DNA of 62,904 nt from Acidobacteriota bacterium (GTDB lineage Bacteria > Acidobacteriota > Thermoanaerobaculia > UBA5066). Position 1 is the first letter of the stretch. Each line of letters begins with the position of its first letter. The notes beneath the pieces were generated by a model, which made no database searches, was not told where the DNA came from, and was given only the letters and a program-made list of their open reading frames with translations. This document shows positions 1 to 62,489 of the stretch, piece by piece. The position numbers and the translations under genes were made by a program. Where the stretch lies: positions 1 to 62,904 of the forward strand of contig JARXKK010000004.1 of NCBI GenBank assembly GCA_030278895.1, given 5' to 3'.

Positions 1-286
1 CGATCTTGATGACGCTCGCGGCCTCGAATTCGTCCGCGGCGTTCAGCTCGAGGCGCCGGCCGCTCTCGACGTGGAGCGCGACGAGGCCCATGCGCGCCCC
101 GCTGCCCGCCGCGAGCTTGGCGACGCGGCGGGCGAGGGGCGTATTCGCGGGCAGCGTATGGAGCGAGGCGGGAATCGTCGTACAGGAAGAGATAGAAACG
201 AGAATGCTGCTGAGAAAGAGAGAGAGAAGAGAAAGAGAAGAAGAAGATTTTCTTAGAAGGGGAAGAGGGGAAGGGGCCGGCGGCAT
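1..286 (-). CDS. class A beta-lactamase-like serine hydrolase with a lipoprotein-type signal peptide (N-terminal part only; the gene runs off the window)
   Basis: Hand translation of the minus strand from ATG 286-284 gives MPPAPSPLPLLRKSSSLFSLLSLFLSSILVSISSC... (lipobox-like ISSC). It continues ...GARMGLVALHVESGRRLELNAADEFEAASVIKI, with an S-x-x-K (SVIK) as in class A beta-lactamases. It is absent from the ORF track because the window edge truncates it. Confidence 0.6.
   Translation of the reverse strand, partial: MPPAPSPLPLLRKSSSSLSLLSLFLSSILVSISSCTTIPASLHTLPANTPLARRVAKLAAGSGARMGLVALHVESGRRLELNAADEFEAASVIKI
243..268 (+). repeat. AT-box copy A (long form)
   Basis: GAAGATTTTCTTAGAAGGGGAAGAGG sits inside a purine tract (181-280). 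It encodes the signal-peptide start of the minus-strand beta-lactamase-like gene (..PLLRKSSS..). Confidence 0.8.
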
Positions 287-341
287 CTCACCGTTCTAAC
301 ATGCTCGAATCGAAAAGGAACAGCGCCTCGTCGCCCTCGAC

Positions 342-1427
342 GTGTTCCGCGGCCTGACGGTCGTGAGCATGGTCTTCGTCAACAACCCGGGGGACTGGGG
401 GCATCTTTACTGGCCGTTCGACCACGCCAAATGGCACGGTTGGACGCCGACGGACCTCATCTTCCCGTGGTTTCTCTTCATCGTGGGCGTGGCGGGCGTC
501 TTCTCGCTTGAGAAGCGGATGGCGTCGGGTGCGGATCGCGCGGGTCTCGCGCGTCACGCGTTCCGGCGCGGTATGACGATCGTCCTCGTCGGCTGGCTGA
601 TGGCGTTCTACCCGTTCGTGCCGTTTCTCGAACGCCTCGGGCGTCTCCGGATTCCCGGCGTGCTGCCGCGTATCGGGGTCACGTTCGTTCTCGGGACGTG
701 GATCGTTCTCGCCGTATGGAGAAAGCGCGTGCCGGGCGTCGCCGTCGCGGTCGTGGCTCTTCTCGCCCTCCACACGTGGATCCTCCTCGGCACGGGATTC
801 GACCTCACGCCGTCCGGCAACGTCCAGCGCGCCGTCGACCTTGCCGTGCTCCAGGGCCACCTGTGGAAGAACGCGCAGGGCTGGGACCCCGAGGGGATCG
901 TCTCGACGCTGACCGCGATCGCAACGATGCTCACGGGCACGCTGACGGGCTTCCTCCTGCGAGGCCCGGCGACCGTGAAGGAGAAGATCGCGAGGCTCCT
1001 CGTGTGGGGGGCCGTTGCAACCGGATGTGGCCTCCTCTGGGGCCGGTTCCTCCCGATCAACAAGAATCTCTGGACCGCGTCGTACGTCGTCTTCACGTCG
1101 GGCGCGGCCCTTCTCGCGATCGGCCTCTGTGTTTTCGTGGTCGACGTCCTCAACTGGAAGAGGCCCTTTGCCTTCTTCTCGACGTTCGGAACGAATCCGC
1201 TTCTCGTCTTCGTTCTCTCGGGCCTTCTCGCGAAGACGATGGGCCTCGTCAAGCTGACGGACGTGGCCGGGAAGGCGATCACGCTTCACACGTGGATTTA
1301 CCGCGGCGGCTTCTCGTGGATCGCGGACCCCACGCTGCGTTCGCACGCGTTCGCGCTCGGGACGATCCTCTTCTGGTGGGCGGTGCTGCGCGTCTTCGAA
1401 AAAAAGGGCTGGTTCTGGAAGCTCTGA
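342..1427 (+). CDS. HGSNAT-like membrane acyltransferase (DUF1624/DUF5009 type)
   Basis: Polytopic membrane protein starting FRGLTVVSMVFVNNPGDWGHLYWPFDHAKWHGWTPTDLIFPWFLF. The conserved RLVALDVFRG continues in frame upstream of the first canonical start (GTG 342). The real start is probably ATG 301 with a 1-nt indel (see findings). Confidence 0.7.
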   Translation: MFRGLTVVSMVFVNNPGDWGHLYWPFDHAKWHGWTPTDLIFPWFLFIVGVAGVFSLEKRMASGADRAGLARHAFRRGMTIVLVGWLMAFYPFVPFLERLGRLRIPGVLPRIGVTFVLGTWIVLAVWRKRVPGVAVAVVALLALHTWILLGTGFDLTPSGNVQRAVDLAVLQGHLWKNAQGWDPEGIVSTLTAIATMLTGTLTGFLLRGPATVKEKIARLLVWGAVATGCGLLWGRFLPINKNLWTASYVVFTSGAALLAIGLCVFVVDVLNWKRPFAFFSTFGTNPLLVFVLSGLLAKTMGLVKLTDVAGKAITLHTWIYRGGFSWIADPTLRSHAFALGTILFWWAVLRVFEKKGWFWKL

Positions 1428-1428
1428 G

Positions 1429-3044: not shown

Positions 3045-3898
3045 CCGGGGCCCTCCTCGGGACGCTGACTCAATGCTGCCGCCACGTTCGAATTCTTCTT
3101 AGAAAGGAATTCGGCGGCCGCCTCGCGCGAAAGTCCCCATTTCGCCGAGACGAGCGCGGTGGGGAGCCGCCAATTACACCTTCTAAGAAAATCTTCGGCT
3201 TTCTCTTCGGACATTCCCGCAAGTTGCGCCACGATCCTCTTTGCCCTCTTCCTCAGTTTTTCGTTCGTTGGCTGCATGGCGACCATTTCGTCCCGGTAGA
3301 CGAGGCCGCGCTTCGCCATGACGGCGGTCGAGAGCATGTTGAGCGCGATCTTCTGCGCGGTGCCGGCCTTCAGGCGGCTGGATTCCGCGAGGACTTCCTT
3401 TCCGGTATCGAGGAGGATGCCGATGTCGGCCAGCCTCTCGAGCGGCCCGTTCGGCCGGCAGACGATGGCGACGGTGAGTGCGCCCGCGCGCTTCGCCTCT
3501 TCCAGCGCGCCCATCACGTAGGGCGTCGCCCCGCTCGCGGCGATGCCGACGACGGCATCCCGTCCCGAGAGCCCTGCGAGGGCGAGGTCGCGGGCGCCCG
3601 CGCCGGCGTCGTCTTCCGCGCCTTCCACGGCCTCGAACATCGCCGCGCGCCCGCCCGCGAGGAGCGCCACGACGAGGGAGGGATCCGTACCGAACGTGGG
3701 CGGAAGCTCCGCGGCGTCCAGCGCGCCGAGGCGGCCGCTCGTTCCTGCCCCTGTGTAGAACCACCGCCCGCCTGCCTCGAGCCTCCCGGCGATCGCGTCG
3801 GCCGCGCGCGCGACCGCGGGAAGAGCGGCCGTGAGCGCGCCTTCGACCGCCTGATCGGCCTCGTGGAGACGCGTGACGAGCTCGAGCGAATCGGTCAT
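3041..3898 (-). CDS. murQ: N-acetylmuramic acid 6-phosphate etherase
   Basis: SIS-domain protein MTDSLELVTRLHEADQ...YTGAGTSGRLG...GIAASGATPYV...ESSRLKAGTAQK. The true ATG is at 3898-3896. The 603-aa track ORF is a run-on. It has ATGA overlaps on both sides. Confidence 0.85.
   Translation of the reverse strand: MTDSLELVTRLHEADQAVEGALTAALPAVARAADAIAGRLEAGGRWFYTGAGTSGRLGALDAAELPPTFGTDPSLVVALLAGGRAAMFEAVEGAEDDAGAGARDLALAGLSGRDAVVGIAASGATPYVMGALEEAKRAGALTVAIVCRPNGPLERLADIGILLDTGKEVLAESSRLKAGTAQKIALNMLSTAVMAKRGLVYRDEMVAMQPTNEKLRKRAKRIVAQLAGMSEEKAEDFLRRCNWRLPTALVSAKWGLSREAAAEFLSKKNSNVAAALSQRPEEGPG
3090..3112 (+). repeat. AT-box copy I
   Basis: GAATTCTTCTTAGAAAGGAATTC in the murQ 3' region (read as EFLSKKNS on the gene strand). 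Confidence 0.7.
3177..3196 (-). repeat. AT-box copy E
   Basis: The plus strand reads CACCTTCTAAGAAAATCTTC. murQ reads it as A-E-D-F-L-R-R-C using GAA GAT TTT CTT AGA AGG TGT. Confidence 0.85.
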
Positions 3899-6228: not shown

Positions 6229-6247
6229 GCCGCGCTAACCTCGCGGT

Positions 6248-8107
6248 GTGCGCCGCCGGGGCCTTCCGCTTCTCCTGCTTCTCTGCACCGCCTTCGCCCT
6301 GAAGGCGGCCCTGCTCGCGCATTTCGACGCCCACCCGCTCCTCCAGCCCGCGGGGGACATGGACAGCGGCGTGTACGCCCGGCTGGCCTGGGACGTCGCG
6401 CACGGCGACGTGCTTCTCCGCGGACCGGGACCCGTACCTTATTTCGTCTCGCCGCTCTACATCTACTTCCTCGCCGCGGTCCATGCGCTCTCGGCGGGCT
6501 CGCTCTTCGCGGCGAAGGTCGTCCAGATCGCCCTCGGGACGGCGGCCGTCGGGCTCGTCTTGCTGACGGCGCGACGGCTCTTCGGCGAACGCGCCGCGCT
6601 CCCGGCGGGAATCCTCTTCGCGCTCACGGGTGTCGTGTCGTTCCACGAGATCCTCATTCTTCAGGCGGCTTTGGACCCGTTCCTCACCGCGCTCGCGATG
6701 TTCCTGCTGGCGGATGCGCTCACTCAGGGGAGTATTTCTTCGAAAGTGAATGGGGCGGTGGGCGCCGGGCGCTGGCTCGCCGCGGGTGGGGCGTTTGGTC
6801 TTCTCGCTCTCAACAGGCCCAATGCTCTCTTGTGCGTCGCGGCGGTTGCGGCAGCGCTTCTCCTCTTCACCTTCGAAGAAAATCTTCTCCGAAGGGTTGG
6901 TGTCGCTACGGCATTTCTCGCGGGCGCGGCGCTGACGATCGCGCCGGTCACTCTCCGAAACCTCGCGGTCTCTCACGAGTTCGTCCTGATCTCCTCGCAC
7001 GGCGGCCTGAACTTCCTCGTCGGCAACGGACCCGGCGCGAACGGGGTCTACCGCGCGCTCCCCGGGATCACGCCGGACATCGCCGGGCAGGCAGCCGACA
7101 CGAAGCGCGTCGCCGAGGCGGCCGAAGGGCGCGCGCTGTCCACACGGGAAGTTTCCTCGCACTTCGCGCGACAGGCCTGGGACTGGATCGAGCGAAACCC
7201 GGCGGACGCCACTCGTCTCTTTCTAAGAAAGATTCATCTTCTTCTTTCCGGCGACGAGGCACCTCTCAATTTCAGCTTCCCGTGGTACCGCGAAAAGAGC
7301 CTCGTGCTGCGGCTGCTGTGCGTCGGGCCCGGCCTCCTCGTGCCGCTCGCGGGCGCGGGATTCTTCCTCGCGCTCTTCGCGTCCGCGGGCGCGGCGCGCC
7401 GGACGCTCCTCGTCTGGTCCGTCTTCGTCCCCTCATACGTTTTCGCGGTCGCACTCTTCTTCGTCGCGACGCGCTACCGCCTCCCGCTCCTCGTGGCGCT
7501 CGCGCCGCTTGCCGGCGCCGCGGTCGCGCAGCTTCCGGAAGCCTTGCGGGCGAAAAGCGCCCGCCTCGGGATCGCCGCTGCTGCCGCCGCTGTCCTCGCG
7601 GCGGTCTCGCTCCGGCCGACGGGCCTCTGGGACGGCGCGGAGGACGAGGACATGCACTGGGCGCTCTACCTCGTCGAGAAGGGTGAAGCAGCAGAAGCCG
7701 CCCGCGTCGCCGAGGCCGCGGCGTCACGGCATCCCGATCCGGGGCTGATGTGGTTCCGGATGGGACAGGCATGGGCCGCGGCGAAGCGCATGGACGACGC
7801 GATCGCGGCGCTCGAGCGGGCCCGAGCGCTCGACCCGCATCCTCCCGCGACGGAGCCGGCGCTCGCGGCCGCGCACGAGAGCAGGGGCGTGGACCGGATC
7901 CTCGGGAACGACGCGCTCGCGGCCCTGCCCGACTTCGAGGCCGCCGTCGCGCTCTCGCCCGACGACGCGGGAATGCTCCTGAACCTCGCGGCCGTCCTCG
8001 CGGAGAAGGGCGATCGCGTGCGCGCCCGGGACCTGGCCCGGAAGTCCCTCGCGCTCCGGCCCGGCTACGGGAAGGCCGAGGCGCTGCTCCGGGCTCTCCC
8101 GAAATGA
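6248..8107 (+). CDS. GT39/ArnT-like membrane glycosyltransferase with C-terminal TPR repeats
   Basis: Multi-pass N-terminal domain followed by TPR-like repeats (MWFRMGQAWAAAKRMDDAIAALERARALDP..., LAEKGDRVRARDLARKSLALRPGY). Confidence 0.65.
   Translation: MRRRGLPLLLLLCTAFALKAALLAHFDAHPLLQPAGDMDSGVYARLAWDVAHGDVLLRGPGPVPYFVSPLYIYFLAAVHALSAGSLFAAKVVQIALGTAAVGLVLLTARRLFGERAALPAGILFALTGVVSFHEILILQAALDPFLTALAMFLLADALTQGSISSKVNGAVGAGRWLAAGGAFGLLALNRPNALLCVAAVAAALLLFTFEENLLRRVGVATAFLAGAALTIAPVTLRNLAVSHEFVLISSHGGLNFLVGNGPGANGVYRALPGITPDIAGQAADTKRVAEAAEGRALSTREVSSHFARQAWDWIERNPADATRLFLRKIHLLLSGDEAPLNFSFPWYREKSLVLRLLCVGPGLLVPLAGAGFFLALFASAGAARRTLLVWSVFVPSYVFAVALFFVATRYRLPLLVALAPLAGAAVAQLPEALRAKSARLGIAAAAAAVLAAVSLRPTGLWDGAEDEDMHWALYLVEKGEAAEAARVAEAAASRHPDPGLMWFRMGQAWAAAKRMDDAIAALERARALDPHPPATEPALAAAHESRGVDRILGNDALAALPDFEAAVALSPDDAGMLLNLAAVLAEKGDRVRARDLARKSLALRPGYGKAEALLRALPK
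6734..6755 (+). repeat. AT-box copy K (TTCGAA variant)
   Basis: ATTTCTTCGAAAGTGAATGGGG in the GT39 gene. The codon is TCG where the consensus would give an in-frame TAG. Confidence 0.7.
6863..6890 (-). repeat. AT-box copy J (TTCGAA variant)
   Basis: The plus strand reads CTCTTCACCTTCGAAGAAAATCTTCTCC in the GT39 gene. The codon is GAA where the consensus would give an in-frame TAA. Confidence 0.85.
7217..7244 (-). repeat. AT-box copy H
   Basis: The plus strand reads CTCTTTCTAAGAAAGATTCATCTTCTTC in the GT39 gene (read as LFLRKIHLLL). Confidence 0.7.
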
Positions 8108-19347: not shown

Positions 19348-19593
19348 GTGATGGAGAATGAGCGCATGAAGGATCCGGTCCAGCGCTACGCGAAAGGCCC
19401 TCTCTCCGTGACGTTCGACCCGCGCGTGTGCACCCACTCCGCCGTGTGCGTGCGCGGTCTTTACGACGTCTTCGACGTGTCGAAGAAGCCGTGGGTGAAT
19501 CTCGACGGCGCATCCGCCGAGCGGGTCGTCGAGCAGGTGAAGCGCTGCCCTTCGGGCGCGCTGCAGTTCACGGTCGAGGCTTCGAAGGGCTGA
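19348..19593 (+). CDS. YjdI-like small (4Fe-4S)-binding protein (divergent mono-cluster ferredoxin fold)
   Basis: VTFDPRVCTHSAVCVRGLYDVFDVSKKPWVNLDGASAERVVEQVKRCPSGALQF matches the YjdI/Fer4_19 pattern C-x4-C...CPSGAL. Confidence 0.65.
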   Translation: MMENERMKDPVQRYAKGPLSVTFDPRVCTHSAVCVRGLYDVFDVSKKPWVNLDGASAERVVEQVKRCPSGALQFTVEASKG

Positions 19594-20314
19594 CGCCAAG
19601 CCCGCGCCGGAGCGCGGCGAGCGCCCCGAGAAGAAGCATCACCTCGCGGGCGGTGGGCTTTCCACGGCGCAGGAACGACTCGATCTCGAAGATGACCTCT
19701 TTCGAGCGGCCCCGGCCCGGGTAACCGGCGGAGGAGAGAACTTCTTTGAAAGAGAGGAGAAGACGCCGGACTTCCTTCGAGCCGGCCATCTGCTCTTCGG
19801 GTTTTGGCGTTCCGCGGCTTCGCCGCGGTGCTTTGAAGGGTGAAAGAGGGGACAGAAAGGCCAGCGCGATCGCGACGGACTGCGCGAGATTGAGCGTCGG
19901 AAAGGCGTCGGCGGTCGCGATGCGGAGGCGGGCGTCGCACGCCCGGAGCTCTTCCGTCGTCAGTCCGCCGCGTTCCGGCCCGAACACGAGGGTGACGCGC
20001 CTTCCGGCGCGAAGAGCACCGGAGATTTCTTTGAAGGTGGTAGACGGCGGCAGTCCTCGCGAGACGCGGCCCCGCATCGCGCTCATGGCCACCAGCGTGT
20101 CGGTTCCGTCGAGAAGGTCGCTCCACGCCGGGAGGACACGCACCTTTCTAAGCAAATCCTCGGCTCCCGATGCGAAGGAGATTGCATCGGGGTGTGCCGG
20201 CTCGGTGCGCGGTCCGAGCAAAGAAATCTCCGCCCCGAAATTCTTCGCGGCGCGCGCCGCCGCCCCGATGTTGCCCGGGTTGTGCGTCCGGACGAGAACG
20301 ATGCGCAGGGCCAT
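19568..20314 (-). CDS. trmJ: tRNA (cytidine/uridine-2'-O)-methyltransferase, SpoU/TrmH class
   Basis: MALRIVLVRTHNPGNIGAAARAAKNFG...LVFGPERGGLTTEEL...LNLAQSVAIALA, collinear with TrmJ. True ATG at 20314-20312. Confidence 0.8.
   Translation of the reverse strand: MALRIVLVRTHNPGNIGAAARAAKNFGAEISLLGPRTEPAHPDAISFASGAEDLLRKVRVLPAWSDLLDGTDTLVAMSAMRGRVSRGLPPSTTFKEISGALRAGRRVTLVFGPERGGLTTEELRACDARLRIATADAFPTLNLAQSVAIALAFLSPLSPFKAPRRSRGTPKPEEQMAGSKEVRRLLLSFKEVLSSAGYPGRGRSKEVIFEIESFLRRGKPTAREVMLLLGALAALRRGLGVSPSKPRP
20141..20161 (-). repeat. AT-box copy N
   Basis: The plus strand reads CACCTTTCTAAGCAAATCCTC. trmJ reads it as E-D-L-L-R-K-V (GAT TTG CTT AGA AAG GTG). Confidence 0.7.
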
Positions 20315-24387: not shown

Positions 24388-25824
24388 ATGCCGGTTCCCG
24401 CCACCGCCTCCGCCCTCGCCGCTGGGGTGCTCACCGGCCGCGTGCCCGATGTCGCGCGCGCGATTTCGTGGGCTGAAAGCGGCGACACCCGTTTTCCAGA
24501 GCTCCTCACGCGCATCTTTCCGCGCACGGGGCGCGCCCGCGTCACCGGGCTCACGGGCTCGCCCGGGGCGGGAAAGTCGACGCTCACGGCGGCCCTCGCG
24601 CGCCGCGCCCGTGCGCGGGGCCGGAGGGTCGGAATCGTCGCGGTCGACCCGTCGTCGCCATTCTCGGGCGGCGCGATCCTCGGCGACCGCATCCGGATGC
24701 AGGACCTCTACACGGACCCCGGCGTCCTCATTCGCTCGATGGCGACCCGCGGGCATCTCGGGGGCCTCGCACGAGCTTCGGCCGACGCCGTGGACGTCCT
24801 CGACGCGGCGGGGTTCGATGAAATTCTCGTCGAGACGGTCGGCGTCGGGCAGGACGAGGTGGAGGTCTTCCGCCTTGCCCAGTCGTGCGTCGTCGTCCTC
24901 ACGCCGGGAATGGGCGACGACATCCAGGCCATCAAGGCGGGTCTCATGGAGGTCGCCGACCTCTTCGTCGTGAACAAGGCGGACCGCGACGGCGCCGACC
25001 GCGTCGTGCAGGAGATCCTGCAGATGCTCGAGCTCGGAGAGCACGGCGCGTGGGTTCCGCCGATCATCAAGACAGTCGCGACGACGGGCGCGGGTCTCGA
25101 CGAGCTGGAGGCAAAGCTCGAAGAGCACCGGGAATTCCTGCTCGGACCCGAGGGCGGGCGGAGAAAGCGCGAGCGGACGAGGATGCGGATCGAGGGGCTC
25201 GTCAGAGAAGATTTTCTTAGAAGGGTAAAGAGCCTCGGGGGTGACCAGGGCGCGCTCGACGAAGCGGCAAGCCGCGTGGAAGCACGCCAGGAGGATCCGC
25301 TGGCCGCCGCCCGCGGCCTGCTCGGCCGTATCGACCACGGCGCCGCCGGAGCGGCCGAATCCCCCCCTTCACCTTCTAAGAAATCTTCGTCTTTTCCGAA
25401 ACCAGAGAATTCTCTTGTCTCTTGCATCTCCCATCTCGGCATCTCCGTCGCGTCCCTCGAAAAGGGCGGAGCCTTTTGGGATCTCCTCGGCCTCGTCGAG
25501 GAGCACCGCGAGGAGGTCGCGTCGCAGCAGGTCATGGCGTCGTTCCGGGCCGTGGGGGAGTCGCACCTCGAGCTCCTCGAATCCACGTCGCCCGACGGCC
25601 CGATCGCGAAGTCGATCGAAAAGCGCGGGCCCGGGGTCCATCACTTGTGTCTCGAGGTGACGGACGTGCGCGCCGCCCTCGCGCGGCTCAAGGCGGCGGG
25701 AGTCCGGCTCGTGAACGAGGAACCGTTCGACGGCGCGCACGATTGCCTCGTCGCGTTCGTCCACCCGTCCGCGACAGGCGGCATCCTCCTCGAATTGTCG
25801 GAGAAGAAGACGAAAGAGGGCTGA
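24388..25824 (+). CDS. meaB: MeaB/ArgK-type G3E GTPase fused to methylmalonyl-CoA epimerase (VOC/glyoxalase fold)
   Basis: The N-terminal ~310 aa carry LTGSPGAGKSTL, AVDPSSPFSGGAILGDRIRM, ETVGVGQDE and NKADRDG. A low-complexity linker (ESPPSPSKKSSSFPKPENS) follows. Then ISHLGISVASLE...GPGVHHLCLEVTDV...AFVHPSATGGILLELSE (MCE). Confidence 0.8.
   Translation: MPVPATASALAAGVLTGRVPDVARAISWAESGDTRFPELLTRIFPRTGRARVTGLTGSPGAGKSTLTAALARRARARGRRVGIVAVDPSSPFSGGAILGDRIRMQDLYTDPGVLIRSMATRGHLGGLARASADAVDVLDAAGFDEILVETVGVGQDEVEVFRLAQSCVVVLTPGMGDDIQAIKAGLMEVADLFVVNKADRDGADRVVQEILQMLELGEHGAWVPPIIKTVATTGAGLDELEAKLEEHREFLLGPEGGRRKRERTRMRIEGLVREDFLRRVKSLGGDQGALDEAASRVEARQEDPLAAARGLLGRIDHGAAGAAESPPSPSKKSSSFPKPENSLVSCISHLGISVASLEKGGAFWDLLGLVEEHREEVASQQVMASFRAVGESHLELLESTSPDGPIAKSIEKRGPGVHHLCLEVTDVRAALARLKAAGVRLVNEEPFDGAHDCLVAFVHPSATGGILLELSEKKTKEG
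25207..25232 (+). repeat. AT-box copy C
   Basis: GAAGATTTTCTTAGAAGGGTAAAGAG in meaB (R-E-D-F-L-R-R-V-K-S). Confidence 0.85.
25366..25397 (-). repeat. AT-box copy F
   Basis: The plus strand reads CCTTCACCTTCTAAGAAATCTTCGTCTTTTCC and forms the MeaB-epimerase linker (SPSKKSSSFP). Confidence 0.85.
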
Positions 25825-36763: not shown

Positions 36764-36790
36764 GAAGATTTTGCTTAGAAAGGGAAGAGG
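36764..36790 (+). repeat. AT-box copy B (long form)
   Basis: GAAGATTTTGCTTAGAAAGGGAAGAGG lies between deoC and the ALDH (or in the ALDH 5' end). A second degenerate tandem copy precedes it (36726-36755). Over about 55 nt it is closely similar to copy A. Confidence 0.8.
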
Positions 36791-38291
36791 AGAAGGCCCG
36801 CGGTCCATCGTGCGGCGCTCGCGCACGCTCGCGACGATTGAGCCCGACTTTCTCGGCAAGTGGGAGTACGCGCCCGCTCCGGAATCGACGTCTCATCTTT
36901 CCATTCGCAGCTCCTACGACCTCTTCATCGGTGGGAAGTGGGTCTCTCCGAAGTCCAAGAAATTCTTCTCGACCATCAATCCCGCCACCGAAGAGACTCT
37001 CGCCTCCGTCGCCGAGGCCGGAGCCGCGGACGTCGACGCCGCGGTCCGCGCGGCCGACCGCGCGTACGAGAAGTACTGGCGACGCATGCCGGGCAAGGAA
37101 CGCGGCAAGTACCTTTACCGCATCGCGCGCATGCTCCAGGAGAAGGCGCGCGAGTTCGCCGTCCTCGAGACGATGGACGGCGGGAAGCCCATCAAGGAGT
37201 CGCGCGACGTCGACGTGCCGCTCGCGGCGGCGCACTTCTTCTACTACGCGGGCTGGGCCGACAAGCTCGACTACGCGCTGCCGGGGCGCAAGGCGCGCCC
37301 GATCGGCGTCTGCGGGCAGGTCATCCCGTGGAACTTCCCGCTGCTCATGGCCGCGTGGAAGCTCGCCCCCGCGCTCGCGTGCGGGAACGTGTCGATCCTG
37401 AAGCCCGCCGAGACGACGCCGCTCACGGCGCTCCACCTCGCGCGCCTCTTCGAGGAGGCGGACTTCCCGCCCGGCGTCGTGAACGTGATCACGGGCGCGG
37501 GCGCGACGGGCGCGGCGCTCGTGACGCACCCGAAGGTGCGCAAGGTCGCCTTCACGGGCTCGACCGAGGTCGGCAAGAGGATCCAGAAGTCGGCGGCGGG
37601 GACGGGCAAGCGCCTCACGCTCGAGCTGGGCGGCAAGGCCGCGAACATCGTCTTCGCCGACGCGCCGCTCGATCAGGCCGTCGAGGGAATCATCAACGGG
37701 ATCTACTTCAACCAGGGTCACGTCTGCTGCGCGGGCTCGCGCCTCCTCGTCGAGGAGTCCGTCCACGACGTCCTCGTGAGGAAGCTCGCGCTCCGCATCC
37801 GGACGCTCCGCCTCGGCGACCCTCTCGACAAGAACACGGACGTCGGCGCGATCAACTCGAAGATGCAGCTCGAGAAGATCAAGGAGCTCGTCCAGTCCGG
37901 CGTCGACGAGGGAGCCGTCCTGACGCAGTCGGGCTGCGTCCTGCCTTCGAAGGGCTTCTGGTTCCCGCCGTCGTTTTTCACGAACGTCGCGCAGAGCTTC
38001 CGGATCGCGAACGAGGAGATCTTCGGACCCGTCCTCGCCGTGCAGACGTTCCGCACGCCGGACGAGGCGGTCGAGAAGGCGAACAACACGATGTACGGCC
38101 TCTCGGCCGGCGTCTGGACGGACAAGGGCTCGAAGATCTTCAAGATCTCTCAGAAGCTGCGCGCGGGCGTCGTCTGGGCGAACACGTACAACAAGTTCGA
38201 CCCGACTTCGCCGTTCGGCGGCTACAAGGAGTCCGGCTTCGGCCGCGAAGGCGGGCGGCACGGGCTCGCGGCGTACCTCGAAGCGGAGTAG
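36771..38291 (+). CDS. NAD(P)-dependent aldehyde dehydrogenase
   Basis: YDLFIGGKW, YYAGWADK, PWNFPLLMAAWKLAPALACGN, FTGSTEVG, LELGGK, NQGHVCCAGSR and EEIFGPV. The start may be TTG 36771 or GTG 36810. Confidence 0.9.
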   Translation: MLRKGRGEGPRSIVRRSRTLATIEPDFLGKWEYAPAPESTSHLSIRSSYDLFIGGKWVSPKSKKFFSTINPATEETLASVAEAGAADVDAAVRAADRAYEKYWRRMPGKERGKYLYRIARMLQEKAREFAVLETMDGGKPIKESRDVDVPLAAAHFFYYAGWADKLDYALPGRKARPIGVCGQVIPWNFPLLMAAWKLAPALACGNVSILKPAETTPLTALHLARLFEEADFPPGVVNVITGAGATGAALVTHPKVRKVAFTGSTEVGKRIQKSAAGTGKRLTLELGGKAANIVFADAPLDQAVEGIINGIYFNQGHVCCAGSRLLVEESVHDVLVRKLALRIRTLRLGDPLDKNTDVGAINSKMQLEKIKELVQSGVDEGAVLTQSGCVLPSKGFWFPPSFFTNVAQSFRIANEEIFGPVLAVQTFRTPDEAVEKANNTMYGLSAGVWTDKGSKIFKISQKLRAGVVWANTYNKFDPTSPFGGYKESGFGREGGRHGLAAYLEAE

Positions 38292-39792: not shown

Positions 39793-42495
39793 TCACTTCA
39801 GATGCTCTCCCGTTGCCGGCCAGTTCAGGACCACCACGGCCGGCTGTTCCTGCCGTTCGTCGGCGGTCGCGAGCACCAGAAAACGATTTCCGTCCGGGGC
39901 CGGGATGTACTGGGACCGGTTGTCGGAGATCCCGTTGGCGGGCACGCGGATCGGAAAGAGTGACTTCGGCGCTCCCACCTGCGCGTCTTCGCCCCCCAGG
40001 GACAGCTCGACGGACATGAGCTTGCGGTCGTTCGAGAGGAAATAAAGCTCTTTCCCGTCCGCGCGCCAGAGAGCCTGGTCGCCGCCGTCTTTCGAGATCT
40101 GCCACTTCCCCCCCGAAGGCGGAAACCTCTGCACATAGACCTCCGCGCGGCCCGTCTCGTCCGAGGAGTAAGCGAAGAACTTCCCGTCCGGCGACGAAGA
40201 GGCATGAGCGGCCGCCGCCTGAGGCACGGCCAGGAGAAGCTGAGCCTTCCGTTCGCCCGAGAGCGGAAGCCTCCAGAGCTCGGGGCGGCCGACACTGCTC
40301 ATCGTCTCGAAGACCAGCCACGCCCCGTCCGGGGAAATGAAGTCGCCGTAGTTGTCGAGGGTCGTGGCGAGGAGCGATTCGTCCCCTCCCGTTCCGTCGA
40401 GGGGCCGGCGGAAGAGGCCCATTCGGCTCGCGCGGTTCGATGAGAAATAGAGGTTCTTTCCGTCCGGCGACGCCATCCCGGTGTTGTTGGCCTTGGGCCC
40501 GAACGTGAGCCGCGTCCACGTGCCGCGCGTCAGGTCGACCTGCCAGAGGTCCTGAAGTTCGGTCCGCGGGTCCGCCACGGTGATGCCGAGGCGTTGCCCG
40601 CCCGCGAACCAGAACGGTTCCGACAGGATGGCGGCGTCCCCGACGGTTCCGAGCGGCTTGCCTGAACGGTCGAACCAGGTAAGTTTCTGGCGGGGGTTCG
40701 CACGACGCCTGTAGACGAGGGCGCCGTCGGCCGCCGCAGAGAAGGCCGCAAGGCCCGTCCACCCGCTCTCGCCCTCGACGGCGATTCCGTCGATGACGAG
40801 TCCGGGCTCGCCGGACAATTTGCGCCGTCCCGCGTCGAACGGCTGCGCATAGAGCGCACTCTCGCGGACGTAGAGGAGGCGGCCCGCGTCGTACTCCGCC
40901 TTCCCGCGGGTCGAGACGACGAAGGCGTCGTCTCCCGAGTCGAGAGAAGCCACGCGCGTGCCGAGGCGGGCCGGGTCGTCGCTTAAGCAGAGGTAGAGAA
41001 AATGGTTCCCGTCGGGCAGGATCTTCGGCCAGCGGTGCGTGTAGTCCTTCGGACCGAACTTCGTCACGGGTGCCGGGACCCCGCCCGAGGCGCTCACGCG
41101 ATGGAGCGGCAAGCGGGTTCCGGGCGCGAAGACGATGACGCCCCGGGGGAGCCACGTGCCGCCCCGCCCGTCGGTGATCGGGCAGATCGTCTGGGGCGGG
41201 CCACCAGCCACGCTGATGCGCGCAAGACGGTCGCCCGTGAAGTATGCGATGGCGGTGCCGTCCGGCGACCAGAAGGGAAAACGCGCGCCTTCCGTTCCGG
41301 GCAGGAGCTGGACGGCGACGGAATCGAACGAGCGCACGTAGAGCCGCTCGATGTCCTTCTCGTCGGTTGCGACGAACGCAAGCCGCCGGCCGTCGGGCGA
41401 GAGCGCCACCGAGCTGCCGAACGACGCCCCCTCGGGGACGCGCACCTCGAACTGGACGACGGGCGCGCGCGGGGCGCGAGCGCGCATCGCGAGGGCCCCC
41501 GCCGCGGCCGCGCACGCGGCCGCGATCGCCCAGGGGAGAAAGAGGGAGAGGAGATTCTTGCGACTTACAGTGGGGCTTGGCGACGCGGGATTTTCTTCGA
41601 AAGGCAATGGGCCGGAGGAGCTCGACGAGAGGGCGGCGCTCGATTCTTCCAGCTCGAGCCTTGCATCTGCGATGTCGTGGAGGCGCTGCTTGGCGTCCCG
41701 CACCAGACACCTTCTAAGAATCTTTCTTACGGCGGTGGGCGTTTGCTCCGGCAGCGCCGCCCAGTCCGGCTCGCCCCGGAGAATCGCCGCGAGCGTGTCG
41801 CTGACCGTCTCGCCTTCGAATGCTTTCTTTCCCGTCAGCATCTCGAAGAGGACGCATCCGAACGCCCAGACGTCCGTGCGCTTGTCGACCGGCTTTCCCC
41901 GTGCCTGCTCGGGCGACATGTACGCCGCCGTCCCGAGGATCATTCCCGCCGCGGTGCCCCGAGCCGTCAGCGTCGGCGAATACGAGATCGAGGGGGAGGA
42001 GGCGCCCGCCTCGTTCTCGAAGATCTTCGCGAGGCCGAAGTCGAGGAGCTTCACCCGGCCCTCGTGCGTCACCCTGACGTTCGCGGGCTTGAGGTCGCGG
42101 TGGACGATGCCCTTCTCGTGCGCCGCCTCCAGCGCCTCGGCGATCTGACGGGCCAGGAAGAGGGATTCTTCGAGTGGAAGAGGGCCGGAAGAGATTTTCT
42201 GCGCAAGGTCTTCACCTTCGACCAGCTCCATGACGAGGAGGTGTCTCCCCCCACTTTCTTCGAAGGAATAGATCGCGGCGATTCCGGGATGATTGAGCGC
42301 TGCGAGTAATCGTGCTTCCCTCTCGAATCGCGTTCTTCTCTCTTCCCCTTCGAAGAACTCTTCCGGCAGTACCTTGATCGCGACCTCTCTCGCGAGGCGC
42401 GGGTCTTTCGCCCGATACACCTCTCCCATCCCGCCCGCACCGAGCGCGGAGAGGATTTCGTAAGGTCCGACGCGCGTGCCTGAGGCCAGCGTCAC
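39793..42495 (-). CDS. Ser/Thr protein kinase with TM segment and C-terminal TolB-like (PD40) beta-propeller (K1)
   Basis: GAGGMGEVYRAKD, AIKVL, HRDLKPANV, DFGLAK and SPEQ, then PD40-type repeats (SPDG..LAF...). The GTG start at 42495 overlaps the K2 stop (GTGA). Confidence 0.85.
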   Translation of the reverse strand: MTLASGTRVGPYEILSALGAGGMGEVYRAKDPRLAREVAIKVLPEEFFEGEERRTRFEREARLLAALNHPGIAAIYSFEESGGRHLLVMELVEGEDLAQKISSGPLPLEESLFLARQIAEALEAAHEKGIVHRDLKPANVRVTHEGRVKLLDFGLAKIFENEAGASSPSISYSPTLTARGTAAGMILGTAAYMSPEQARGKPVDKRTDVWAFGCVLFEMLTGKKAFEGETVSDTLAAILRGEPDWAALPEQTPTAVRKILRRCLVRDAKQRLHDIADARLELEESSAALSSSSSGPLPFEENPASPSPTVSRKNLLSLFLPWAIAAACAAAAGALAMRARAPRAPVVQFEVRVPEGASFGSSVALSPDGRRLAFVATDEKDIERLYVRSFDSVAVQLLPGTEGARFPFWSPDGTAIAYFTGDRLARISVAGGPPQTICPITDGRGGTWLPRGVIVFAPGTRLPLHRVSASGGVPAPVTKFGPKDYTHRWPKILPDGNHFLYLCLSDDPARLGTRVASLDSGDDAFVVSTRGKAEYDAGRLLYVRESALYAQPFDAGRRKLSGEPGLVIDGIAVEGESGWTGLAAFSAAADGALVYRRRANPRQKLTWFDRSGKPLGTVGDAAILSEPFWFAGGQRLGITVADPRTELQDLWQVDLTRGTWTRLTFGPKANNTGMASPDGKNLYFSSNRASRMGLFRRPLDGTGGDESLLATTLDNYGDFISPDGAWLVFETMSSVGRPELWRLPLSGERKAQLLLAVPQAAAAHASSSPDGKFFAYSSDETGRAEVYVQRFPPSGGKWQISKDGGDQALWRADGKELYFLSNDRKLMSVELSLGGEDAQVGAPKSLFPIRVPANGISDNRSQYIPAPDGNRFLVLATADERQEQPAVVVLNWPATGEHLK
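41589..41611 (+). repeat. AT-box copy P (TTCGAA variant)
   Basis: GATTTTCTTCGAAAGGCAATGGG in K1 (gene strand reads PLPFEENP). The TTCGAA change avoids an in-frame TAA. Confidence 0.75.
41708..41728 (-). repeat. AT-box copy G
   Basis: The plus strand reads CACCTTCTAAGAATCTTTCTT. K1 reads it as R-K-I-L-R-R-C (AGA AAG ATT CTT AGA AGG TGT). Confidence 0.8.
42163..42184 (+). repeat. AT-box copy O (GC-adapted)
   Basis: GGATTCTTCGAGTGGAAGAGGG in the K1 kinase domain. Two further degenerate copies follow at 42188-42223. Confidence 0.5.
42252..42271 (+). repeat. AT-box copy L1 (TTCGAA variant)
   Basis: CACTTTCTTCGAAGGAATAG in K1 (gene strand reads YSFEES). The change avoids an in-frame TAA. Confidence 0.7.
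42338..42364 (-). repeat. AT-box copy L2
   Basis: The plus strand reads CTCTCTTCCCCTTCGAAGAACTCTTCC in K1 (gene strand reads EEFFEGEER). Confidence 0.7.
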
Positions 42496-45119
42496 CTGAA
42501 TGTGCCCACCCAGATGTCGCTCTCGGTCACGTTTCGGAGGAAGTAGAGGGAGCGTCCGTCGCGCGAGAGCGCAATGCGCTGGACCGTGCCTTCCGCCGCC
42601 GGGAGGACGAGACGCGACTGGCGGGCCGCGAGGTCGAGGACGCGGATGCCGTCGGGCGTCGTCAGGACGGCACGTCGCCCGTCCGGCGCAAACCTGGCGA
42701 CGTACGCACGGACGCCGAGTCCTTCGCATGCATTTTTCGAGGGCGTGCAGAGGCGCGCCTCGAGGGCCAGCTCGCCTCCGGGACCCGCGGCGAGAAGGCG
42801 CGCGCCGTCGAACGACCAGCTCCAGGCCCAGCGCGACTCGAGATCGGCGACCGGAGCGCTCACCGAGAGAGAGCCGCCGGTACCCGTGACGAGCGGAAAC
42901 ACCGCCACGCGCGCGTCGAACGAGGCCGCGGCGAAGAAACGCCCGTCCGGGGAAAGAGCGGGGTAGAGGTAGAACATGGACTTCGGCGGCGTGAGCCGAG
43001 AGAGGCCGCTGCCGTCGACCGCGATCGAGTAGCCGCCGTAGTCCCCGTCCCGGTTCGAGTAGAAGGCGAGACGCTTGCCGTCCGCCGTGAAGGCTGGCCC
43101 GCGGTTTCGGAACTCGTCGTGGGTGAGCCGGCGGAGCTTCTGGCCATCCGTGGAGACGAGGCAGAGGTCCTCGAGTCGTCCCACCGTGCGCGTCGCGAGC
43201 GTGGTTCCGTCAGGTGAGATCTCGAGGTCCTCGAAGGCGGTGGAGCTTCGCCTGAGGACGACCGGCGGCCCGATGGGATTGAGCGTGCCGGGATCGAGCG
43301 CGAGCTTCTCGATCGTCATGAGTTCGGCGGGAGAGGTGAAGGCGATCCGCTTCCCGTTCCGCGACCCGCGGAACGAGCCGGGGAAGGTCCCGGCCCACGT
43401 GATCGGCACCGTCACGGGCTCGGGCGCGCCCCGCGTGGCGCCCGTAGCCTCGTCTATAGGGACGCGCCAGAGATTGAAACTTCCGCCGCGGTCGCTCCCG
43501 AAGTAGAGGAACGCCCCGTCGGCGGACCAGAACGGGCTGAAGTCCACCGCGGTGTCGTTCGTCACCGGGACGGGCTTCTCGCCCTCCTTGAGGCCCGCGA
43601 GCGGCACCGTCCAGATGTCGCGCTGCGCCGTATCGCCGACGAGGCCCCAGAACGCGACGCGCTTCCCGTGCGGGGAAACGGCGGGCTCGACCGCGTCCGG
43701 GCCATAAAGCATCCGCTTCTTCCCGGTTGCGACCTCGACGGCCCAGATCTTCGCGCGCGTGCCGCGCGCGAGCGGTGACAGCGCAGCCTCCTCCGCGTAG
43801 ACGATCTCCTTGCCGTCGGGCGTGAAGTCGGGGCCGTAGCCCGTGTCCGTCACGCGGCGCACGGACTCGCCGAGCGGGCCCATGACGAAGATGCCGCCGC
43901 CGTCCTTGCCCGAACGGAACGCGATGAGCGAGCCGTCCGGCGAGTAGACGGGGTCGAACCGGTCGTCCTCCGGGGAATCCGCCGAGAGGTCGATGGGCTT
44001 GTCGCTGCCGACGCGCTGGACGATGACGTGCCGGCGCCCCGAGACGGCCTTCATGTAGGCGACGGTCTCGCCGTCGGGCGAGAGAGCCGGCGACCGCTCG
44101 ATGCCGGGATCCGACGAGAGCCGCTCGAAGAGCAGGGTCGGCGGCGGCGCGGACGTGCGGCCGTGCCGCCCCGCGAAGAATCCTGCGACGAGGAGCGCGG
44201 TTGCGGCCGCGGCCAGGAGCGCGCGCCGCTTCACGAGGCGCGAGGGTGCGACGCCCGGCGCGACGGCGGCGCGCGCGGCGGAGTCCGCCGAGAGGCTCTC
44301 GAGCGCGAATGCGAGGTCGCCCGCGGACTGGAAGCGCTGCTCGGGGCTCTTCTCGAGGCAGCGGCGCACGATGCGCTCGAGGCCGGGCGGGACGCTCTGG
44401 TTCGTGACGGAGAGGTCGGCGGGTTCCTCGCGGAGGATCGCCGTGATGACGTCCGCGCTGGAATCTCCCCCGAATGCCTTCTTCCCCGAGAGCATCTCGT
44501 AAAGGACGGCGCCGAACGCGAAGAGGTCGCTGCGTTGGTCGGCGGGCCGGCCCCGCACCTGCTCGGGGGCCATGTAACCCATCGTCCCGAGGACCATGCC
44601 CGGCTCCGTGCCGCGCGCCGCGGTCGGCAGGTTCGAGCCGGAGCTCGCGGCCGAATCTTCCGTGAGCTTCGCGAGACCGAAGTCGAGGATCTTGATGCGC
44701 CCGTCCTTCGTGACGAAGAGGTTTTCGGGCTTCAGGTCGCGGTGCACGATGCCCTTTTCGTGAGCGGCCGAGAGTCCGCGCGCGATCTGGATCGACCAGT
44801 CGACCGCCTTGCGGAGCGGGAGCTTCCCTGCGGCGATCGCCTGACGCAGCGTCTCGCCCTCGAGCAGCTCCATGACGAGGATGTGACGGGCCGCGGAGGA
44901 GGAAGGCAAAGAGGGGATTTCTTCGAAGGAATAGATGGCGGCAATTCCCGGATGATTGAGGCTCGCAAGGAGGCGAGCTTCCCTCTCGAACCGCTGCCTT
45001 CTCTCTTCACCTTCAAAGAATTCTTCCGGCAGTACCTTGATCGCGACCTCTCTCGCGAGGCGCGGGTCTTTCGCCCGGTAGACCTCTCCCATCCCGCCCG
45101 CGCCGAGGGCAGAGATCAC
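42492..45119 (-). CDS. Ser/Thr protein kinase with TM segment and C-terminal TolB-like beta-propeller (K2)
   Basis: Same architecture as K1. The conserved N-terminus LAIATGTRLGPYEV continues in frame up to 45158, where only a CTG aligns with the K1 GTG start. 45119 is the first canonical start. Confidence 0.8.
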   Translation of the reverse strand: MISALGAGGMGEVYRAKDPRLAREVAIKVLPEEFFEGEERRQRFEREARLLASLNHPGIAAIYSFEEIPSLPSSSAARHILVMELLEGETLRQAIAAGKLPLRKAVDWSIQIARGLSAAHEKGIVHRDLKPENLFVTKDGRIKILDFGLAKLTEDSAASSGSNLPTAARGTEPGMVLGTMGYMAPEQVRGRPADQRSDLFAFGAVLYEMLSGKKAFGGDSSADVITAILREEPADLSVTNQSVPPGLERIVRRCLEKSPEQRFQSAGDLAFALESLSADSAARAAVAPGVAPSRLVKRRALLAAAATALLVAGFFAGRHGRTSAPPPTLLFERLSSDPGIERSPALSPDGETVAYMKAVSGRRHVIVQRVGSDKPIDLSADSPEDDRFDPVYSPDGSLIAFRSGKDGGGIFVMGPLGESVRRVTDTGYGPDFTPDGKEIVYAEEAALSPLARGTRAKIWAVEVATGKKRMLYGPDAVEPAVSPHGKRVAFWGLVGDTAQRDIWTVPLAGLKEGEKPVPVTNDTAVDFSPFWSADGAFLYFGSDRGGSFNLWRVPIDEATGATRGAPEPVTVPITWAGTFPGSFRGSRNGKRIAFTSPAELMTIEKLALDPGTLNPIGPPVVLRRSSTAFEDLEISPDGTTLATRTVGRLEDLCLVSTDGQKLRRLTHDEFRNRGPAFTADGKRLAFYSNRDGDYGGYSIAVDGSGLSRLTPPKSMFYLYPALSPDGRFFAAASFDARVAVFPLVTGTGGSLSVSAPVADLESRWAWSWSFDGARLLAAGPGGELALEARLCTPSKNACEGLGVRAYVARFAPDGRRAVLTTPDGIRVLDLAARQSRLVLPAAEGTVQRIALSRDGRSLYFLRNVTESDIWVGTFR
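44916..44934 (+). repeat. AT-box copy M1 (TTCGAA variant)
   Basis: GATTTCTTCGAAGGAATAG in K2 (gene strand reads YSFEEI). The change avoids an in-frame TAA. Confidence 0.7.
45001..45027 (-). repeat. AT-box copy M2
   Basis: The plus strand reads CTCTCTTCACCTTCAAAGAATTCTTCC in K2 (gene strand reads EEFFEGEER). Confidence 0.7.
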
Positions 45120-56498: not shown

Positions 56499-56500
56499 AG

Positions 56501-56529
56501 AATATTTTTCTTAGAAGGTGAAGAGGATC
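56501..56529 (+). repeat. AT-box copy D (long form, intergenic)
   Basis: AATATTTTTCTTAGAAGGTGAAGAGGATC fills the 29-nt gap between the convergent ligase stop (56498) and the PKD-protein stop (56528). Confidence 0.85.
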
Positions 56530-61065: not shown

Positions 61066-61067
61066 CC

Positions 61068-62489
61068 ATGACGACTCGCAGAGACTTCGTTCGCATCTCG
61101 GCGTGCGGCGCCATCGGCATGGCCGCCGTCTCGGAAAGCCTCGAGCGGCTCGGGCTCATCTCGAATACGGCGCAGGCGGCGCCGTCCGACTACCGGGCGC
61201 TCGTCTGCATCTTCCTCTTCGGCGGGAACGACTCGAACAACATGGTCATTCCGACGTACGGGTCGGGTTACACGGCCTACTCCTCGGCCCGCCAGAGCAG
61301 CCTCGCGATCGCTCAGGGCGCGCTCGCGGCCACGGCGATCACGCCGAACAGCATGGGTCTTCAGTTCGCTCTTCACCCGGCGATGACCGGGCTGAAAGGC
61401 CTCTGGGACTCCAACAAGCTCGCCGTGGTCGCGAACGTCGGGCCGCTCACCGACATCACGACCAAGACCCTCTACAACACGAACGCCGCCTTCCGTCCGT
61501 ACCAGCTCTTCTCCCACAGCGACCAGCAGTCCAGCTGGATGGCGCGGCGCTCGGACATTCGGACGAACCTCGGCTGGGGCGGTCTCACGGCCGACGACCA
61601 GGTGTCGCTGAACGGCGCGTCGGCATACCCGCCCGTGACGTCGCTCGCCGGGAACAACCAGTTCAACCTCGGGCAGGTCACGAAACCGCTCGGTGCGGCC
61701 CCCGCGCCGACGGCGCTGAACTCGATCCTCGCCCTGAACGGCTTCACGGCCTCGGCGGTCGACGCGGCCCGCCTCACGGCCTTCAATTCGCTCCGGACGT
61801 TCGACGCCGGCGTCCCGCTCGTGAACGCGACGAGCGGCGTCACGCAGGCCGCGATGAACATCAGCGCGGCGCTCAAGGTGGACCCGGTCGTCGGGGCATT
61901 TCCGAACACGAACATCGGCAACCAGCTCAAGCAGGTCGCGAAGATCATCAAGCTCAACCAGACGGCTCCGGAGCTCGGCTTGAACCGCCAGATCTTCTTC
62001 TGCTCAATGGGCGGCTTCGACACCCATCAGGACGAGCTCGCGGCGCACACGAACCTCTATGGGCAGCTCTCGGCCGCGATGAGCGCGTTCTACACGGAGA
62101 CGAACGTGCAGGGGCTCGCGGGGCGCGTGACGACGTTCACGGAATCGGATTTTGGAAGGACTCTTGCGCCCTCGGGAACGGGCGCGTCCGTCGGATCGGA
62201 CCACGCCTGGGGCAGCCACCAGCTCGTCATGGGCGGGGCCGTGGTCGGCCACGATTTCTACGGCGTCAACGGGCCCAACGGAAGCGTCTTCCCGGACCAC
62301 ACGCTCGGCGCGGCCAACCCGCTCGATACCGACGGCCGCGGCCGATTCATCCCGACGTGTGCCGTCGATCAGTACGCCGCGACGCTCGCGCAGTGGTTCG
62401 GAGTCTCGCCCGTGAACGCGACCGCGATCTTCCCGAACCTCACCAAGTTCACGACGCCGAGCCTCGGCTTCATGCTTCCGGCTTTCTAG
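61068..62489 (+). CDS. DUF1501 family protein with twin-arginine signal
   Basis: MTTRRDFVRISACGAIGMAA, LFGGNDSNNM, GGFDTH, SDFGRT and GSDHAWG. ATG lies 2 nt after the DUF1800 stop. Confidence 0.8.
   Translation: MTTRRDFVRISACGAIGMAAVSESLERLGLISNTAQAAPSDYRALVCIFLFGGNDSNNMVIPTYGSGYTAYSSARQSSLAIAQGALAATAITPNSMGLQFALHPAMTGLKGLWDSNKLAVVANVGPLTDITTKTLYNTNAAFRPYQLFSHSDQQSSWMARRSDIRTNLGWGGLTADDQVSLNGASAYPPVTSLAGNNQFNLGQVTKPLGAAPAPTALNSILALNGFTASAVDAARLTAFNSLRTFDAGVPLVNATSGVTQAAMNISAALKVDPVVGAFPNTNIGNQLKQVAKIIKLNQTAPELGLNRQIFFCSMGGFDTHQDELAAHTNLYGQLSAAMSAFYTETNVQGLAGRVTTFTESDFGRTLAPSGTGASVGSDHAWGSHQLVMGGAVVGHDFYGVNGPNGSVFPDHTLGAANPLDTDGRGRFIPTCAVDQYAATLAQWFGVSPVNATAIFPNLTKFTTPSLGFMLPAF

Follow-up and report, generated by a model that had tools for sequence, protein, structure and literature searches.

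Head-to-head pairs of a 28-bp DNA word written over the genes of an Acidobacteriota lineage: candidate sites for a DNA-binding protein

Why should one AT-rich word recur inside unrelated protein-coding genes of a GC-rich bacterial chromosome? The question is raised by a 62.9-kb stretch of DNA of ~68% GC, hereafter the window, from an Acidobacteriota bacterium of the Thermoanaerobaculia lineage UBA5066 (assembly GCA_030278895.1, contig JARXKK010000004.1, positions 1 to 62,904). Its genes are those of an ordinary bacterial chromosome, including murQ, the gene of a gyrB/parE-type topoisomerase subunit, glnA, carA and the genes of DAHP synthase and MeaB, together with genes for several PD40-repeat Ser/Thr kinases, a TonB-type receptor, a sigma-54 activator and DUF1501/DUF1800 proteins; the window genes include neither a transposase nor a recombinase. 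An original prediction had claimed 18 strong copies of the word in the window. We describe here that the copies, termed arms below, are organized in head-to-head pairs, and we favor the hypothesis, with a probability of roughly 60%, that these paired sites are read by a DNA-binding protein.

The 25-mer of the original prediction, with up to three mismatches allowed, matches the window twice compared to no match in 100 dinucleotide shuffles, and the core TTCT[AT]AGAA occurs eight times. A 28-nt position weight matrix (PWM), for which 210 copies of the window and of related loci served as training set, identifies 20 copies of at least 14 bits, in good agreement with the 18 claimed, and 13 of them reach at least 25 bits. 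Since the range from 8 to 14 bits is empty, the copies separate cleanly from background. Of 11 further 'weaker or GC-adapted versions' that had been proposed, only the one at 19736-19762 is a copy (19.8 bits), all others scoring at most 4.4 bits. Seventeen matches lie within open reading frames (ORFs) backed by Pfam or PDB homology and three are intergenic (arms 254, 36776 and 56512); one of the 17 (match 6889+) is a probable by-product that overlaps arm 6876-. As predicted, the copies within coding sequences (CDSs) belong to genes of unrelated proteins: murQ, a PMT_2/TPR glycosyltransferase, a SpoU methylase, MeaB and two Ser/Thr kinases. Pfam and PDB alignments rule out for murQ, MeaB, the kinases and the glycosyltransferase that these ORFs are miscalled and the copies truly intergenic. 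Shuffling synonymous codons within genes yields 3.2 matches (maximum 7) compared to the 17 observed, and 0.74 strong matches (maximum 3) compared to 10. The dinucleotide and codon shuffles rule out an origin by chance or composition, and the frequency of the word beyond codon composition bears out its predicted spelling with rare codons.

Each arm is an asymmetric AT-rich duplex signal of ~28 bp with the consensus GAAGATTTTCTT[A>C,T]GAAGGTGAAGAGGG. The core TTCTnAGAA is palindromic and the flanks are asymmetric, purine-rich on the outside (to about -24) and G-rich on the inside. Its information content is 31 bits, compared to 12.6 bits needed for its frequency. Of the neighbors at most 250 nt apart among 314 arms in 860 kb, 90 are convergent, 14 tandem and none divergent, paired arms having their GGTGAAGAGGG ends inward and their GAAGATTTT ends outward. 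Collapsing orthologues leaves 62 independent units whose centre-to-centre spacing (d) starts abruptly at 69 nt; 14 are found at 69-77 nt and the remainder extends to ~160 nt with a tail to 225 nt. In the window, 14 of the 20 copies form seven convergent pairs (Table 1). Its unpaired arms comprise three true singles and two others with decayed partners. The partner of arm 254 is at approximately position 298 (-0.6 bits), and the orthologous locus L029 has a full pair (d = 82); that of arm 36776 is possibly at 36957 (4.4 bits, d = 181). Arm 254 is preceded by a pure GA tract of ~45 nt (GAGAAAGAGAGAGAGAAGAGAAAGAGAAGAAGAAGA, window 205-250). The pair architecture and its minimum spacing of ~70 nt, missed by the original prediction, narrow the range of mechanisms.

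The DNA enclosed by the pairs is unrelated between units, except between orthologues or tandem paralogues, and within genes it is the native coding sequence. The sole case of related interiors inside one genome is locus L057 (2346-7451), where three tandem same-strand genes of ~700 aa, which look like paralogues, are separated by units with similar interiors. Arm identity within a unit is 0.645, compared to 0.664 when arms are permuted between units (z = -2.1). Partner arms do not covary, and therefore the arm is read as sequence and not as a hairpin. Arms are sequence-specific, strand-independent, independently evolving, set in a rigid pair geometry and strongly conserved.

How the word came to lie within genes is best seen in protein alignments. 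MurQ aligns without gaps to the N-acetylmuramic-acid-6-phosphate etherase 4s12 through both copies ('...aedflrrcnwrlptalvsakwglsreaaaeflskknsnvaaal'), and MeaB aligns without gaps to 3md0 through an arm ('lvredflrrv' against 'lvrdavldrv'). Around window position 7225, orthologues have CTCTTCGCGAAGAAGGTCCGCTTCGTCCTC (FAKKVRFVL) where the window has CTCTTTCTAAGAAAGATTCATCTTCTTCTT (FLRKIHLLL), a difference of ~12 substitutions and no indel; the site of arm 7210..7237 reads CTCTTCGCGAAGAAGGTCCGCTTC (FAKKVRF) in orthologues. Small indels are seen at arm borders in the loop-rich membrane glycosyltransferase. The arms, in genes and in spacers, are made by substitution, not by insertion. An inverted interior of the MeaB unit, prompted by a GC content of 0.95 at third codon positions of the antisense frame, was ruled out: the sense frame aligns to MeaB homologues and no orthologue is inverted.

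Half of the arms (156 of 314) lie within called CDSs, compared to ~91% of the DNA being coding, with a 5-8-fold enrichment of copies between genes. The coding arms are distributed along gene bodies; the intergenic ones are found between tandem, divergent or convergent gene neighbors and are modestly in excess between the last of these. As had been claimed, both orientations and different reading frames are used: 79 CDS copies are on the gene strand and 77 antisense, and all six frames occur, unequally, with the readings KIFLEGEE (44), PSKKIF (42), FTFEE (28), EDFLRR (25), ISSKV (10) and LLRK (7). Of the intergenic copies, 70% have A as their central base. Where A would create an in-frame TAG it is found in none of 10 copies, and where it would create TAA in two of 28, C or T being used instead. 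This change at would-be stops identifies a DNA-level signal negotiating with the genetic code.

The word extends well beyond this contig. An exact degenerate 20-mer (TTTTCTTMGAAGGKGAAGAG) is found in at least 114 stretches of GTDB species-representative genomes. Among the matches listed, ~90% are in more than 25 Thermoanaerobaculia/Acidobacteriota metagenome-assembled genomes (MAGs), and those outside the lineage are single chance matches in low-GC genomes. About 1.1 Mb of lineage DNA was examined. Because genome loci were chosen by exact consensus match, density and arm-strength figures were taken where possible from unseeded DNA (135 kb), which has one arm per 3.1 kb, a 23:21 orientation ratio and 64% of arms in convergent pairs; the unit density is about one per 5 kb. 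Both murQ arms are found at the same codons in metagenomic orthologues with 69-90% amino acid identity, and no arm is present in a homologue of 43% identity on a contig of 50% GC. Arm retention at orthologous positions is 85-100% with flanks 70-95% identical, and arm conservation is 0.83 compared to 0.75 for enclosed or flanking DNA, both figures being inflated by redundant loci and by the required PWM match (of both members in the identity comparison). One intergenic arm has 25 nt invariant across five MAGs, next to a variable spacer with indels. Independent MAGs and metagenomes of many studies share the motif at orthologous codons, which rules out a contig-specific artefact or chimera. The predicted genome-wide DNA-level word thus stands as a lineage-wide one, kept at orthologous positions irrespective of gene strand, and literature searches by sequence and by topic gave no description of it.

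In the interpretation that we favor, a sequence-specific protein would bind each arm independently on duplex DNA, possibly as a dimer as suggested by the TTCTnAGAA dyad, and two facing arm-bound complexes would cooperate over a small DNA loop. The orientation rule and the sharp lower limit of spacing would follow from ~70 bp being about the smallest length over which duplex DNA can be looped or wrapped. As to the purpose of such paired sites, our tentative proposal is a lineage-specific 'self' transfer signal, for uptake or for packaging of the pac or gene transfer agent (GTA) type, spread by molecular drive. Alleles with better units would undergo transfer and recombination more frequently, so that units would accumulate, and the loop-closing pair could be the handle for uptake or wrapping of folded DNA. 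A transmission advantage of the DNA itself would be an easier explanation than a tiny per-site host benefit, since 31 bits rather than 12.6 are imposed on essential proteins through rare codons and amino acid changes; the surplus of information is consistent with drive or with a large bivalent reader.

Uptake sequences, for which molecular drive has been put forward, are marked by occurrence in both orientations, under-representation yet frequency in CDSs, a bias in reading frame, dyad pairs and a lack of copies in genes that have no homologues in relatives (PMC2817400). The motif matches the first four of these. In population signature it is most like the uptake signal sequences (USS) and DNA uptake sequences (DUS), and in geometry most like transposon ends; from each family considered it departs in one or more of the defining features tested. 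In USS/DUS the decisive trait is the preference of competent cells for DNA that carries the word. It shares with USS/DUS a lineage-specific word in hundreds to thousands of copies, equally frequent in both orientations, with peptide effects and positions kept in relatives (PMC2817400). The copy number across one lineage, the equal orientation and the CDS under-representation with frame bias all agree with such signals, and stop-avoiding variants are used. In locus L102 (102-2201), genes for a PilT/T2SSE-type ATPase and a 2Fe-2S protein lie between arms 2.1 kb apart; their location is probably a coincidence, and would be relevant if the signal were linked to type IV pili or DNA uptake.

Several points weigh against this proposal. 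A reader protein was not identified, nor is there evidence for competence or GTA production in these bacteria. The uptake sequences known to date are built on cores of 9-12 nt, recur about once per kb and do not need head-to-head pairs of 70-160 bp. The word described here has 28 bp and 31 bits instead of a short single-site core, its paired members are at least 69 nt apart, it is AT-rich in a 68% GC genome, approximately two thirds of its arms are in strict head-to-head pairs 70-160 bp apart, genes included, and it occurs about once per 3 kb. Its host lineage is also outside the two known families (Pasteurellaceae USS and Neisseria DUS). Tight protein-closed DNA loops often show helical phasing, which is marginal at best and not significant here (power ~3.4 at 10.5-11 bp, 62 units), and for this reason cooperation over a loop is something that we infer. 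In the related loci, genes were called with a simple home-made codon-bias caller trained on the window, and this, like the inflated retention and identity figures, asks for caution. Finally, host-level selection for an architectural function would predict the identical conservation pattern.

This last explanation, in which a chromosomal architectural or synaptic protein binds the pairs and closes or wraps a loop of 70-160 bp approximately every 5 kb under host-level selection, is nearly as likely as the transfer signal and accounts equally well for the geometry. The protein could be a nucleoid organizer, the reader of a supercoil-domain or gyrase-type site, a head-to-head clamp or helicase loader, or a domesticated transposase or recombinase. 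The strict head-to-head orientation with its ~70-bp minimum, arms read independently as sequence, the palindromic core with asymmetric flanks, the strong conservation in genes and spacers and the density of about one unit per 5 kb are all consistent with such a role. So is the scarcity of the motif in IMG/VR viral contigs, where the only two matches are chance ones in low-GC contigs. Per-site selection must however outweigh rare codons and amino acid changes in many proteins, the helical phasing is not clear, and the window has no candidate gene. No nucleoid protein is known to us that has about a thousand sites of 31 bits each.

A mobile family is an unlikely third explanation, in which the arms would be terminal inverted repeats moved by a transposase or by a REP-associated tyrosine transposase (RAYT) encoded elsewhere, and the coding copies tolerated insertions. 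Miniature inverted-repeat transposable elements (MITEs), including the in-frame Rickettsia palindromic elements (RPEs), have inward terminal inverted repeats and a minimum size of ~100 bp, lie at times in genes, and are insertions that share an interior. The units resemble them in the inward geometry, in the ~100 bp minimum that transposase ends require and in lying partly in genes. The 5-8-fold intergenic enrichment, the long hairpins of many intergenic units, the small indels at glycosyltransferase arm borders and an information excess typical for sequences of common descent also speak for mobility. Against it, non-orthologous units have unrelated interiors, which rules out a MITE family with a common interior, and the enclosed sequence is the native gene, the arms arising by substitution. 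No indel relative to an empty site is found in the MurQ/4s12 and MeaB/3md0 alignments or at arm 7225, the border indels being confined to one membrane protein. Empty-site alignments (loci L009/L016 and L070/L025) are ambiguous and display no clean excision. Arms keep their positions from one species to another, around half of them lie in CDSs, and conservation has no sharp outer boundary, no formal search for target-site duplications having been made. No autonomous transposase with the same repeats was found in the ~1.1 Mb of the lineage, either in the window or between arms 0.6-3 kb apart, which enclose ordinary genes, namely those for YceI, an acyltransferase, an OPT transporter, a PilT-like ATPase and a glycosyltransferase.

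REP (repetitive extragenic palindromic) sequences and their doublets (REPINs) deserve a separate comparison. They are described as dispersed repeats of 25-35 nt, found as inverted doublets, persistent, vertically inherited and mostly intergenic (PMC3337134, PMC3116915). The units are similar in length, doublet arrangement and vertical persistence. REPINs are extragenic, copied as whole doublets with a family-specific spacer, and hairpin-forming, whereas here half of the arms lie in CDSs (confirmed for murQ and MeaB by PDB homologues), interiors are unrelated, spacing is broad (69-225 nt) instead of sharply peaked, and the arms of a unit show no compensatory change. No RAYT gene flanked by the repeat is present within the window.

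A hairpin in RNA or single-stranded DNA, acting through pairing of the arms as a bidirectional terminator, a processing site (for RNase III, for instance) or an mRNA stabilizer, is more doubtful still. The arms are complementary by construction, intergenic units fold with z-scores of -4.4 to -9.6 and can form long stems, some interiors have terminator-like GC hairpins, and there is the slight enrichment between convergent genes. However, partners are no more complementary than arms of different units, and the permutation test rules out hairpin selection; what is conserved is the sequence, not pairing alone. The enclosed loop is at least ~40 nt, and two of four folded coding units have no significant structure (z = +0.75 and +0.34). 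With centres at least 69 nt apart, the units have neither the short-loop stem and U tract of intrinsic terminators nor the covariation of structured RNAs. A scan found no promoter or terminator consensus and no terminator excess, and no Rfam family matches the motif.

Least probable among the named alternatives are invertons, intragenic or intergenic, in which a recombinase would flip the enclosed segment and recode or switch hundreds of genes: close pairs are nearly all inverted rather than direct, the asymmetric site has a palindromic centre as in recombinase sites, the minimum spacing is near that for recombinase synapsis, and intragenic invertons exist in other bacteria (bioRxiv 10.1101/2023.03.11.532203), but interiors have the same orientation in every scorable orthologous comparison (~25), a recombinase would be blind to head-to-head versus tail-to-tail arrangement and yet tail-to-tail pairs are absent, hundreds of identical sites would scramble the conserved synteny, and no recombinase is encoded within the window. 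Any of the functions first suggested for the word (uptake, architectural or recombinase site) may apply, with inversion by a recombinase unsupported. The remainder of the probability goes to something not yet imagined.

Other described elements differ in similar ways. HIP1 (GCGATCGC) of cyanobacteria, Chi and the FtsK-orienting polar sequences (KOPS) are over-represented genome-wide words that lie on coding sequence and are kept at orthologous positions. They are single sites of 5-8 nt, replichore-skewed in the case of Chi and KOPS, and the function of HIP1 is still unknown; none of these words is paired in architecture. The Neisseria intergenic mosaic elements (NIME) have dRS3 inverted repeats bracketing variable segments of 50-150 bp in intergenic arrays, and in terminase pac regions two protein-binding boxes loop or wrap ~100-200 bp, at times within a gene, once per phage. 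The units recall the former by short conserved inverted repeats around variable segments and the latter by paired boxes looping DNA, but neither is written over hundreds of housekeeping genes. Integron attC sites, which share one orientation and bound promoterless cassettes in arrays beside intI, are not a match either, the units being scattered in and between housekeeping genes on both strands with no integrase. Further leads, none of which matches over the conserved core, were the IS5 terminal repeat (GGAAGGTG...), the CodY box, Noc and parS sites, dif_SL, hix and the anti-Shine-Dalgarno sequence.

The arms of the window are compiled in Table 1. Within the glycosyltransferase ORF, arm 6728..6755 is found in four orthologous loci (L117, L118, L121 and L124) in which arm 6861..6888 is weak or missing; the latter is found in a further one (L134).

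Table 1. Arms identified by the PWM in the window.
Coordinates	Strand	Score (bits)	Location	Pairing	Reading or remark
242..269	+	47.8	intergenic, upstream of ORF 300-1427		
3088..3115	+	20.9	murQ (gene on - strand)	left arm, unit 3100/3185, d = 85	AEFLSKKN
3170..3197	-	39.1	murQ	right arm, unit 3100/3185	AEDFLRRC
6728..6755	+	35.2	PMT_2/TPR glycosyltransferase ORF 6239-8107	left arm, unit 6740/6876, d = 136	ISSKVN; TTCTTCGAA variant
6861..6888	-	46.2		right arm, unit 6740/6876	
6877-6904	+	14.6			overlaps arm 6861..6888, probable by-product
7210..7237	-	27.2	ORF 6239-8107	single	LFLRKIHLL
19734..19761	+	19.8	SpoU-methylase (TrmJ-like) ORF 19568-20449 (- strand)	single	weak
20019..20046	+	14.0	SpoU-methylase ORF	left arm, unit 20031/20150, d = 119	weak
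20135..20162	-	14.6		right arm, unit 20031/20150	weak
25206..25233	+	38.1	MeaB, C-terminal helix	left arm, unit 25218/25378, d = 160	REDFLRRV
25363..25390	-	39.0	linker between MeaB and epimerase domain, ORF 24220-25824	right arm, unit 25218/25378	
36764..36791	+	29.3	intergenic, DeoC-type aldolase (end 36749)/aldehyde dehydrogenase		
41585..41612	+	25.4	Ser/Thr kinase-PD40 gene 39793-42480 (- strand)	left arm, unit 41597/41716, d = 119	
41701..41728	-	24.9		right arm, unit 41597/41716	KILRRC
42248..42275	+	15.6	kinase domain of gene 39793-42480	left arm, unit 42260/42353, d = 93	
42338..42365	-	31.0		right arm, unit 42260/42353	EEFFEGEER directly after VAIKVLP
44911..44938	+	27.0	paralogous kinase 42492-45119 (- strand)	left arm, unit 44923/45016, d = 93	
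45001..45028	-	29.5		right arm, unit 44923/45016	EEFFEGEER
56500..56527	+	41.5	29-nt spacer between converging ATP-dependent DNA ligase (end 56498) and PKD-domain gene (end 56528), filled by the arm	single	strong

The tandem paralogous Ser/Thr kinase-PD40 genes (39793-45119) each have a d = 93 pair at the same place, bracketing 'RFEREARLLASLNHPGIA', and locus L082 has the same arrangement. The unit is therefore older than the duplication or was copied along with it. The codon-bias gene caller cut both kinase genes short right at the arm starts (42163-42491 and 44883-45119). In the ORF at 24220-25824, MeaB (Pfam residues 79-337) is joined in one frame, with no intervening stop, to a methylmalonyl-CoA epimerase domain of the glyoxalase fold (residues 405-513), either by a true fusion or by a lost stop. 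The region 26000-30000, which has no arm, has a GC content of 0.60-0.62 compared to ~0.68 elsewhere and may be acquired DNA; it contains a 793-aa subtilase (S8) ORF at 27031-29412 and ORFs without Pfam match. ORF 300-1427, which also lacks a Pfam match, has a plausible coding N-terminus ('RLVALDVFRGL') upstream of its first in-frame start, a GTG at 342, the ATG at 301 being out of frame. The arrangement points to a frameshift, an error in sequencing or an uncommon start.

Few genome-wide words take precedence over codon choice and even over amino acid sequence. Behind each of the known ones (USS/DUS, Chi, KOPS and HIP1) stands a basic process, already revealed or still concealed, for example DNA uptake, repair or the segregation of chromosomes. 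Among known dispersed signal words, the one described here is new in length, in the obligatory pairing of its arms head-to-head at 70-160 bp, in having such pairs within genes and in host lineage, and no described dispersed signal is known to share its strict geometric rule (head-to-head, at least ~70 bp). In practice, the motif offers a clean taxonomic marker for binning MAGs of this abundant uncultured soil and sediment lineage and is a likely source of assembly breaks. It is also a caveat for analyses of codon usage, selection, gene calling and start-site prediction in these genomes, given the truncation of the kinase genes at arms by a codon-bias caller. The chances seem evenly balanced that it represents an unknown class of bacterial genome signal, with at least ~500 protein-closed mini-loops per chromosome, each set by two head-to-head 28-bp sites that serve either as a paired, loop-first uptake or packaging signal or as sequence-specified chromatin anchors in Acidobacteriota. 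An uptake or packaging signal of this kind would be the first paired, loop-first one and the first outside Proteobacteria. Its reader protein would reveal either how Acidobacteriota recognize self in horizontal transfer or a new sequence-directed organization of the nucleoid.

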